64,000 bases of DNA from a virus. Position numbers and translations under genes: made by a program. The notes below the pieces were generated by a model. It did not search any database and had not been told where the DNA came from. It saw only the letters and a program-made list of their open reading frames with translations. The stretch lies in IMG/VR virus record IMGVR_UViG_3300045988_176129, positions 24,700-88,699 of that record; one strand, written 5' to 3'. How positions within the stretch are numbered: position 1 is the first letter of the stretch; every line of letters starts with the position of its first letter. This document shows positions 60,132 to 60,293 of this stretch, in pieces.

Positions 60132-60293
60132 AGAGTAGTAAACTTCCGAAAAGAGGTATGGAAGGCTAGAGGTATTATAGAATATGCAGGCATTCTGGTT
60201 CGAGACCAGCACTATTATATAATAATAGTATGTATGCTAATACTAATTGGGAAACTCCTGCTGTACTAAGAGGTTTGAATCCTCTTCTACTCT
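60132..60293 (+). ncRNA. promoter-driven tRNA-like RNA (~160 nt) with terminal acceptor-like pairing and canonical-position T-arm
   Basis: 5' gagtag pairs with 3' ctactc; T-arm agagg-tttgaat-cctct immediately before the 3' strand; internal hairpin ctgg-ttcgaga-ccag; the promoter TTGACA-17-TGATATAAT ends about 8 nt upstream. Confidence 0.35.

Follow-up and report, generated by a model that had tools for sequence, protein, structure and literature searches.

The 64,000-nucleotide (nt) stretch of DNA analysed here, called the window, covers positions 24,700 to 88,699 of the IMG/VR virus record IMGVR_UViG_3300045988_176129 and is an AT-rich phage genome segment with ~31% GC. At positions 60132-60293 of the window, on the + strand, an element was found that is predicted to give a transfer RNA (tRNA)-shaped RNA with a cloverleaf-like fold. 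We hold with high confidence that the fold and the family to which the element belongs are real, as judged from covariation across its relatives. Our preferred reading, to which we assign a probability of roughly 0.5, is that the element is a portable, trans-acting tRNA mimic that was here inserted at the +1 position of a consensus early promoter. As far as sequence comparison reaches, the family is previously uncatalogued and known only from uncultivated gut phages. What appears to be new is a covariation-supported family inside the known broad category of tRNA mimics, with an unusual two-T-loop, anticodon-less architecture and an equally unusual history of insertion.

Architecture of the element

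A first-pass annotation, made from the letters of the window, had proposed a promoter-driven, tRNA-like RNA of ~160 nt at this site. The observations behind it were confirmed. A perfect promoter (12/12 matches to TTGACA-17-TATAAT, 60095-60123) lies just ahead of the gagtag strand. The pairing of gagtag with ctactc is present as a 7-base-pair (bp) helix between AGAGTAG (60132-60138) and CTACTCT (60287-60293). The T-arm agagg-tttgaat-cctct lies at 60269-60285, directly against the 3' strand and thus in the tRNA-like position, and the internal ttcgaga hairpin is CTGG-TTCGAGA-CCAG at 60195-60209. Compensatory changes preserve the cloverleaf-like fold across six lineages. The interpretation was right in part: the element is a tRNA-like RNA, but it is neither an intron-containing tRNA nor a Y RNA. 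The parts of the element are as follows.

60132-60293, + strand: tRNA-shaped RNA element, whole family unit, 162 nt (covariance model R1, 185.6 bits, E = 6.9e-41; homologues L041, L043 and L174-L178)
60132-60138, + strand: P1 5' strand, AGAGTAG, of an acceptor-like 7-bp stem with 60287-60293 (double-sided changes at all 7 pairs)
60139-60142, + strand: conserved junction UAAA, UAAR in the family (lineage sequences)
60143-60164, + strand: P2, D-arm-like hairpin with a 5-bp stem, CUUCC/GGAAG, and a 12-nt loop, GAAAAGAGGUAU (2/5 pairs covary)
60165-60185, + strand: junction J2/3; a small hairpin, P2a, in other lineages and a weak 3-bp version here
60186-60190, + strand: P3 5' strand, GCAGG, anticodon-stem-like (pairs with 60257-60261)
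60195-60209, + strand: T-arm1, CUGG-UUCGAGA-CCAG, canonical T-loop hairpin within P3 (two outer pairs covary)
60210-60248, + strand: variable region, 21-52 nt in the family, here with two AU-rich hairpins (60211-60229 and 60232-60243)
60249-60256, + strand: GGGAAACU, with GGGAAAC unchanged in every lineage and Y as the final base (a 2-bp mini-hairpin with a GAAA tetraloop is predicted)
60257-60261, + strand: P3 3' strand, CCUGC (covariation)
60268-60286, + strand: T-arm2, AAGAGG-UUUGAAU-CCUCUU, with a 6-bp stem and a 7-nt T-loop, abutting the P1 3' strand as in tRNA
60287-60293, + strand: P1 3' strand, CUACUCU (covariation)

The family follows the module order P1(7)-UAAR-P2(5 bp + GAAAAGNNGUAU)-P2a-P3-NAUU-T-arm1-variable-GGGAAACY-P3'-6 nt-T-arm2-P1', and a single regular expression for these modules parsed all nine distinct sequences (9/9). 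The RNAs range in size from 144 to 174 nt. In the window P1 can be extended to 10 bp via 60129-60131 and 60294-60296. The P2 loop has the family consensus GAAAAGNNGUAU, in which only positions 7-8 vary, and P2 and P3 are separated by 19-21 nt (21 nt in the window copy). Read from the sequences, the P2a stems of the other lineages are UCCG/CGGA, AUCG/CGAU, AUUG/CAAU and ACGAU/AUCGU. P3 consists of 5-6 bp and appears as GCAGG/CCUGC, GUUGG/CCAGC or CGCGC/GCGUG; its interior of 62-93 nt is flanked in all lineages by the conserved NAUU...GGGAAACY, and T-arm1 has 4 bp and a UUCRANN loop. The GGGAAAC mini-hairpin adjoins the P3 3' strand, and the distance from GGGAAAC to the GG of T-arm2 is exactly 16 nt in every lineage. 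The core of T-arm2 (AGAGG-TTTGAAT-CCTCT, 60269-60285) has 5 bp without the sixth pair (60268/60286). In the window clade this pair goes from A-U to G-U at one of the three sites that vary among the near-identical copies; other lineages have G-C.

Three further local pairings or functions were tried and rejected. The P2 loop as a Shine-Dalgarno (SD) mimic was discarded as positions 7-8 vary (AG, GG, GU, GC) and the SD-like sequence is unconserved. A pairing of the P2 loop with CCUCU of the T-stem is not kept in L043, and an alternative proximal 'acceptor' pairing, AGUAGU/ACUAUU, falls within the variable region.

Family members and covariation

A 16-nt probe from the D-like arm recovered two true homologues in IMG/VR, L041 and L043. 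Composite patterns yielded L043-type copies and the window type from gut metagenomes (L165-L173), together with three further lineages (L174/176/178, L175 and L177). Six lineages are thereby known in total: the window type, the L043 type, L041, the L174/176/178 type, L175 and L177. Pairwise identity between lineages is 56-86%, and 61-65% between the window copy and the others; a wider range, 56-73%, was also given for the five other lineages compared with the window copy. Covariance model R1 scored the family copies at 111-187 bits, with 185.6 bits for the window copy and 111-154 bits for the others.

MAFFT, run on three lineages without structural information, gave an alignment in which each of the 24 proposed pairs was canonical, many with double changes. 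In the alignment of 11 sequences, which was fitted to R1 and thus biased towards the structure, 98.9% of pair cells were standard, compared to 34-51% with slid partners, and double-sided changes occurred at 15/24 pairs; none of 500 shuffles attained these values. RNAalifold on an independent MAFFT alignment returned the same helices with compensatory changes at 19/30 pairs. It added T-arm1 (with covariation), the sixth pair of T-arm2 (A-U/G-U/G-C) and a two-pair mini-hairpin with a GAAA tetraloop formed from GGGAAACY. The G-U pairs and the polarity of the T-loops indicate that the + strand is the functional one. By lineage, the bases at P2-loop position 7 and T-loop2 position 3 are A-U, A-U, A.C, G-C, G-C and G-C. 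This is suggestive of a tertiary pair that would be the equivalent of the G19-C56 elbow pair of tRNA.

The motif content of the element is more than chance. The whole window was scanned on both strands for T-arms, defined as G-TTYRANN-C closed by at least 4 bp, which gave 28 T-arm-like hairpins on the + strand and 0 on the - strand. Every one lay within the tRNA array at 13.6-20.2 kb, except for two, 75 nt apart, that belong to the element. Markov-shuffled non-tRNA sequence contained 1.43 +/- 1.12 such hairpins per 56.5 kb on both strands.

Searches beyond these lineages were empty. Neither blastn nor R1 found a second copy in the 64-kb window, and R1 found no further members in ~1.4 Mb of other contigs. 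The patterns AGAGGTTTGAATCCTCTTCTACTC and GCATTCTGGTTCGAGACCAGCAC had 0 matches in viral contigs, the sole match to a two-T-loop spacing pattern was a pair of adjacent ordinary tRNAs, and a TAAA-N5-GAAAAGAGGTAT pattern was swamped by ribosome-binding-site look-alikes (~118 uninformative loci, L047-L164). Both pattern scans of GTDB genomes were empty. A blastn comparison with GenBank phages, made with the window, L043, L041, L175 and L177 copies, and one with plasmids (PLSDB), made with the window copy, gave no homologue; the matches seen were to promoter or AT-rich stretches, plus one 26-nt chance match. The literature gave no description of the motif, which could be among the 10,006 viral candidate RNAs catalogued in 2023 (PMC10690425).

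Comparison with tRNA and other known RNAs

ARAGORN called 21 tRNAs elsewhere in the window and none at the element. Rfam at the gathering threshold (29 bits for the tRNA model, RF00005) gave nothing at the element, and with permissive filters and E<=10 over 59850-60450 it gave only two chance hits, STnc361 and MIR7504. The homologous loci of the other lineages had no Rfam hit. The same tRNA model does detect an insert-bearing tRNA of the window at 13844-13981 (54 bits).

The resemblance to tRNA lies in the arrangement of the arms. As in tRNA, the 7-bp terminal stem stacks on a T-arm with a closing pair of the G53-C61 type and a UUYRANN T-loop, the hairpin that resembles a D-arm comes after a U-purine junction, and the place of the anticodon stem is taken by a stem of 5 bp. 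This four-arm order matches the cloverleaf, so that R1 hits real tRNAs weakly but end to end; they were its only other full-length hits in the window (7.7-15.2 bits). Unlike tRNA, the element has no anticodon loop: its P3 encloses a second T-arm, followed by a variable insert and the GAAA mini-hairpin. Its P2 has 5 bp and the 12-nt loop GAAAAGNNGUAU without a GG motif, whereas the D-arm of tRNA has 3-4 bp and a loop with G18 G19, and P2 and P3 are separated by a junction or hairpin of 19-21 nt instead of the single nt 26 that precedes the anticodon stem of tRNA. Five of the six lineages have a T-stem of 6 bp, which gives a 13-bp stack, and that of L041 has 5 bp and one unpaired base.

YrlA is a non-coding RNA of similar size that mimics the D/T-arm elbow of tRNA and also occurs in phages (PMC4201824). 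At least one YrlA is cut by RNase P and given a CCA end (PMC4201824), a precedent for the processing proposed below for the element. The 5' and 3' ends of YrlA form the Ro-binding helix at the position of the anticodon arm, and its 'acceptor' is a closed stem-loop; it contains the motif GNCGAAN0-1G and lies within ~4 kb of the rsr gene, which encodes a TROVE-domain protein, on the same strand (PMC4201824). The Y RNA alternative raised by the first-pass annotation was discarded on these grounds. The ends of the element form the acceptor-like P1 and not a Ro-binding stem, GNCGAAN0-1G is absent from the family sequences, there is no Rfam hit, and no TROVE/rsr gene was present among the scanned open reading frames (ORFs) within 4 kb. 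Likewise, Pfam found no TROVE domain in the 10 flanking ORFs (54953-63750).

The tRNA-like domain of transfer-messenger RNA (tmRNA) shares with the element an acceptor stem and T-arm combined with replacement of the anticodon arm by a larger structured domain. Unlike tmRNA, the element is far smaller and has no tag reading frame and no G3-U70 (pair 3:70 is A-U, U-A or G-C), its D-like part is a true hairpin, and neither ARAGORN nor Rfam reported a tmRNA.

Modules of tRNA shape are also known within longer transcripts, such as the t-elements of plant mitochondria, the mascRNA of MALAT1 and the 3'-end tRNA-like structures of plant RNA viruses. These are 3'-terminal or internal, are eukaryotic or organellar, and are read by tRNA-processing enzymes. 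They are the closest functional analogy for the window copy, which is a tRNA-shaped fold predicted within a longer messenger RNA (mRNA), but the element has a second T-loop module and no sequence relationship with them.

One copy, that of L177, resembles the peripheral helix insertions of group I introns in that it tips a 13-bp stem at the P8 position. The element itself, with its 144-174 nt, fully nested pairing and no P3-P7 pseudoknot or G-binding site, differs from a group I intron, and the Rfam group I model (RF00028) had no hit at the element. The candidate that the element is a complete group I intron was rejected, since it is too small, fully nested and located in a 5' untranslated region (UTR); the window copy lies outside any intron.

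Promoter and insertion history

The element sits between a 58-amino-acid (aa) ORF (59929-60105) and a 90-aa winged-helix gene (60376-60648). The surrounding features are as follows.

60095-60123, + strand: sigma-70 promoter, TTGACA-17-(TG)TATAAT (12/12 matches; same promoter in L020-L029, L033 and L036)
60311-60333, + strand: hairpin AAAGAG...CUCUUU, part of the original 5' UTR and outside the element (present in element-less sister phages)
60376-60648, + strand: downstream winged-helix (MarR-like) gene, 90 aa, whose predicted mRNA now starts with the element

The promoter is the top promoter-like site across 59000-61500, with a TG preceding the -10 box, and GAGTAG begins at 60133, 9 nt past this box. 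Ten metagenomic contigs carry a near-identical element at the same place, with three variable sites only, and contigs with the same locus reach 125-137 kb. Sister phages with a winged-helix protein 67-91% identical to that of the window have the same promoter, UTR hairpin and gene order with a spacer of ~90-115 nt, but no element; more distant relatives (43-51% identity) also have none. Since element-less sisters share the promoter and the downstream gene, the promoter predates the element and the element is a recent insertion of ~170 nt. We consider such a recent insertion in the window phage to be well supported by this comparison and quite probable.

When compared with the empty sites, the boundaries of the insertion/deletion fall within ~6 nt of the ends of P1, ~8 nt past the -10 box and at the predicted transcription start. 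An 8-nt direct repeat, ATAAATAT, flanks the insertion (60124-60131 and 60300-60307), and an A-rich stretch, ATAAAA, follows the element. The repeat is ambiguous, as it lies in an AT-rich low-complexity spacer, and the empty site of L033 already holds similar short repeats. The idea of a clean target-site duplication was rejected because of this ambiguity.

Genomic contexts of the other copies

The contexts of the family members differ. The L043 type, on contigs of up to 167 kb, is stand-alone, with an intrinsic terminator from 16 nt downstream and the next ORF ~350 nt off. The L041 copy (4179-4352) is located in a long non-coding stretch between tRNA-Ser and tRNA-Gln. In L175, a 41.8-kb contig, the copy is intergenic between two ORFs, and the ribosome-binding site of the next gene lies ~40 nt downstream. 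In L174/176/178 a conserved block of ~220 nt consists of the 144-nt element with ~36 nt upstream and at least 40 nt downstream, and the genes upstream differ.

The L177 phage is related to that of the window. Over their main segments, its gyrB and ligase ORFs have 51-59% identity to the window counterparts, and the short C-terminal gyrB exon has 32%. Its gyrB is split exactly at DADVDG|SHI by an insert of 1258 nt (7637-8894, - strand) with a GIY-YIG ORF within. The 5' junction of this insert has U, its 3' end is G, and its P7-like strands are GACUAU/AUAGUC; it is probably a group I intron. Here the element sits on the tip of a perfect 13-bp stem that lies between the P7 strands, in the place of P8.

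Genes downstream of the element are unrelated across lineages and include a winged-helix protein, a replication protein, the gyrB exon (via the intron) and uncharacterised genes. No protein was common to the flanks of different lineages, except for the gyrase/ligase synteny between the window and L177.

Some further observations were made on these contigs. In L177, gyrA (~4705-5978) is also split, by a 1274-nt insert that encodes a LAGLIDADG protein; the Rfam group I model detected neither the gyrB nor the gyrA insert. L175 (5180-5420) and L177 (7660-7690) have in common the motif AAAGAUAGUYAGUG, 10-25 nt downstream of the element, which resembles the 'S' element of group I introns (P7 3' strand). 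Its pairing partner in L175 is CUAACUA, immediately upstream of the element; no split gene is evident there. In L041, ~1.2 kb from tRNA-Ser to the next ORF (3740-4920, - strand) is non-coding and contains several uncalled tRNA-like pieces on either side of the family member, among them a T-arm at ~4452 and a tRNA-like unit without an anticodon arm at ~3960-3900.

Proposed role and alternative explanations

The sequence comparisons show the fold, the family, the insertion and the promoter consensus; we infer transcription, processing and a role as a decoy. With the element at the +1 of a pre-existing early promoter, its RNA would be made as the extreme 5' end of the winged-helix transcript and would act in trans as an anticodon-less tRNA mimic. 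The stack of acceptor stem and T-arm, together with the elbow, is recognised in tRNAs by RNase Z, RNase P, the CCA-adding enzyme and T-loop modifiers. In the element, this 'top half' and elbow could make a substrate or ligand for such readers of tRNA shape (RNase Z, the CCA-adding enzyme, T-loop modifiers), and tRNA-processing enzymes would free the RNA from the mRNA and stabilise it. By analogy, GGGAAAC may supply the purines that are normally captured by T-loops and so form a second elbow-like module with T-arm1. Once released, the RNA could titrate a factor directed at tRNA, or divert it; a host defence toxin that targets tRNA is one example. That the RNA binds or titrates such a factor in the phage-host arms race is put forward tentatively, at somewhat less than an even chance.

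In the conflict between phages and bacteria, tRNAs are a main battleground. Host weapons against tRNA include anticodon nucleases, PARIS, retron effectors, Schlafen-type nucleases and toxins that modify the CCA end, and phages reply with their own tRNAs and RNA-repair enzymes (PMC11464382, PMC11555353, PMC13056530). The conserved loops, the varied transcribed non-coding niches and the lack of a tie to any neighbour gene favour a trans-acting RNA whose shape is its function. The tRNA-centred character of the phage, with at least 23 tRNA genes, ROOL, a Thg1-like polymerase, an RNA ligase and phosphoesterases, was counted for the same reading. The earlier description of the element as a tRNA-like regulatory RNA or tRNA mimic still fits best, a regulatory function being putative only.

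Several points weigh against a trans-acting mimic. The window RNA is fused to an mRNA with no terminator or known processing site after the element, which keeps a role in cis in play. Lacking an anticodon loop, a decoy of this kind cannot be a competing substrate for anticodon nucleases. No conserved discriminator, encoded CCA or acceptor-stem identity element is found across lineages, which argues against aminoacylation by a specific synthetase, and no conserved protein partner was found in the flanks. As only six lineages are known, the covariation of the tertiary pair may be a single evolutionary event. Finally, the folding energy is no better than that of shuffled sequence. The minimum free energy is -39.5 kcal/mol, compared to -34.8 +/- 3.8 for dinucleotide shuffles (z = -1.21), and 20/200 shuffles fold as well or better, so that the comparison of fold energies named in the first-pass annotation does not favour the structure. 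This thermodynamic result is outweighed by the comparative evidence from covariation.

Other explanations were weighed, of which a leader acting in cis and a selfish module are compatible with the trans-acting mimic, while a riboswitch and a degenerate tRNA fit poorly. As a leader, the tRNA-like fold would serve at the 5' end as a generic stabiliser or processing signal, either by blocking 5'-end-dependent decay or as RNase P/Z 'punctuation' in the manner of plant mitochondrial t-elements. The start of the window copy is no more than ~2 nt from the predicted +1, and the copy is joined to the winged-helix mRNA, the distant relatives L005 and L006 have a simple hairpin at the equivalent post-promoter position, and the position of L175 close ahead of a ribosome-binding site would suit such a leader as well. 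However, sister phages have the same gene behind the same promoter without the element, the L043 type has its own terminator behind it and a distant next ORF, the L177 copy is inside an intron, and a plain stabiliser needs no invariant 12-nt loop, GGGAAAC and two T-loops across six lineages. We regard the leader as unlikely. The selfish module would be a P1-to-P1 unit that spreads in the manner of a short interspersed nuclear element (SINE) or a miniature inverted-repeat transposable element, or via an RNA intermediate, into transcribed non-coding sites where it is tolerated, with a fold that serves its own mobility and not the phage. Such a unit is consistent with the match of the inserted DNA to the RNA boundaries, the A-rich tail and direct repeat, the different loci in related phages (5' UTR in the window, helix tip of the gyrB intron in L177) and the size range of the host phage contigs, from 41.8 kb to 167 kb. 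Against it stand the ambiguity of the repeat and the similar repeats at the empty site of L033, and the covariation of P1, which differs between lineages and leaves no conserved terminal inverted repeat for a transposase. The Pfam scan found no reverse transcriptase or transposase in the 10 flanking ORFs (54953-63750) and 20 larger ORFs of the window, nor among the scanned ORFs flanking the L043 copy, and the 64-kb window has one copy only. A mainly selfish module is quite unlikely in our judgement.

As a riboswitch-like aptamer, the element would respond to a ligand or a tRNA and regulate the gene or terminator downstream of it. The flavin mononucleotide (FMN) riboswitch does contain two T-loop modules, the element is 5' of a gene in the window and L175 and 16 nt before an intrinsic terminator in the L043 type, and the invariant single-stranded motifs could form a binding pocket. 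But the genes downstream share no theme, an alternative pairing of the anti-terminator or anti-SD kind was not seen, one copy is within an intron helix, and sisters with the same downstream gene lack the element. We consider an aptamer improbable. Under the last alternative, close to the intron-containing tRNA of the first-pass annotation, the tRNA gene would be degenerate (a pseudo-tRNA) or would contain an intron or other novel insert. It would account for the overall cloverleaf arrangement, and the same phage carries a tRNA with a ~65-nt insert in the anticodon loop. We consider it very improbable. ARAGORN and the Rfam tRNA model are blank at the site even at E<=10, the D-like arm of 5 bp with its 12-nt loop and the 21 nt to P3 are foreign to tRNA, and the P3 interior bounded by NAUU...GGGAAACY can neither form an anticodon loop nor be spliced to one of 7 nt with U33. 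The conserved features are the non-tRNA ones, which is the opposite of decay.

A broader version of the tRNA-mimic reading is a mobile tRNA-shaped class with two elbow-type T-loops that would insert as a P1-defined unit in transcribed non-coding niches and be released as a decoy or adaptor for tRNA-directed immunity or phage tRNA repair. Examples of such niches are the +1 of the early promoter here, a helix tip in a group I intron and tRNA clusters, and a more radical version would have the class spread SINE-like through an RNA intermediate. We regard this class as doubtful. If the narrower reading is true, a promoted anticodon-less mimic would be an RNA decoy or adaptor, different from a replacement tRNA, in the tRNA arms race. 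The near-identical phages with and without the element at the same promoter are a natural experiment, and a compact natural RNA of ~145 nt with two T-loop modules suits structural work. Since tRNA finders and Rfam miss the element, the tRNA-like content of phages is probably under-counted.

Genome setting and further observations

The window encodes, according to Pfam, DNA gyrase subunit A, ThyX and a split NAD-dependent ligase. A 642-aa ORF adjoining gyrA aligns to the gyrB-like ORFs of L177 and has the Toprim motif DADVDG. The Pfam families of the 10 flanking ORFs (54953-63750) are gyrase A, ligase parts, phosphoesterase, winged-helix, GIY-YIG and ThyX. The split DNA ligase (57393-59882) consists of an adenylation and OB part (57393-58502) and an HhH and BRCT part (59064-59882), with a 193-aa metallophosphoesterase-like ORF (58505-59086) between the two. 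In the relatives L033-L035 and L177 the ligase is intact (651-677 aa).

The tRNA array at 13.6-20.2 kb holds at least 23 tRNA genes as found by ARAGORN and Rfam, with a ROOL RNA (RF03087, 255.9 bits) embedded in it at 15643-16280. The tRNA at 13844-13981, which ARAGORN missed, has an insert of ~65-68 nt in its anticodon loop. This insert folds as a miniature cloverleaf and is far too small for a group I intron. Its stem CGGAAAU/AUUUCCG closes two hairpins, each of 4 bp with a loop of 5 nt, and a canonical T-arm, UUGAG-UUCAAAU-CUCAA. Its excision by RNase P and RNase Z would leave 3'-OH/5'-P ends that a phage RNA ligase could seal, which would be a candidate new splicing route. Further T-arm-bearing tRNA-like elements, called by neither ARAGORN nor Rfam, are present at 14030-14345 and 15400-15500; they occupy a ~570-nt non-coding part of the array (13981-14549) and the region immediately upstream of ROOL. 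They include T-arms at 14121-14137 and 15464-15478 as well as a cloverleaf at ~14259-14340 whose 'anticodon' loop has 5 nt.

An RNA-repair-type cluster at 44117-50318 comprises a Thg1-like tRNA 3'-5' polymerase (44117-44977), an RNA ligase with a PHA02142 OB domain (45984-47219) and two metallophosphoesterases (47527-48303 and 49186-49749). An 817-aa protein (38802-41255) has a major-vault-protein 'shoulder'/SPFH-like domain (PF11978, E = 4e-16). In-frame TAG codons were seen where relatives have Gln, for example at ~8560 in L177 within the GIY-YIG motif (RRFS*H) and in the homologues of the 58-aa ORF in L002-L004 (MTKK*MKK compared to MTKKQ). This pattern indicates a putative TAG-to-Gln recoding in some relatives of this phage group.

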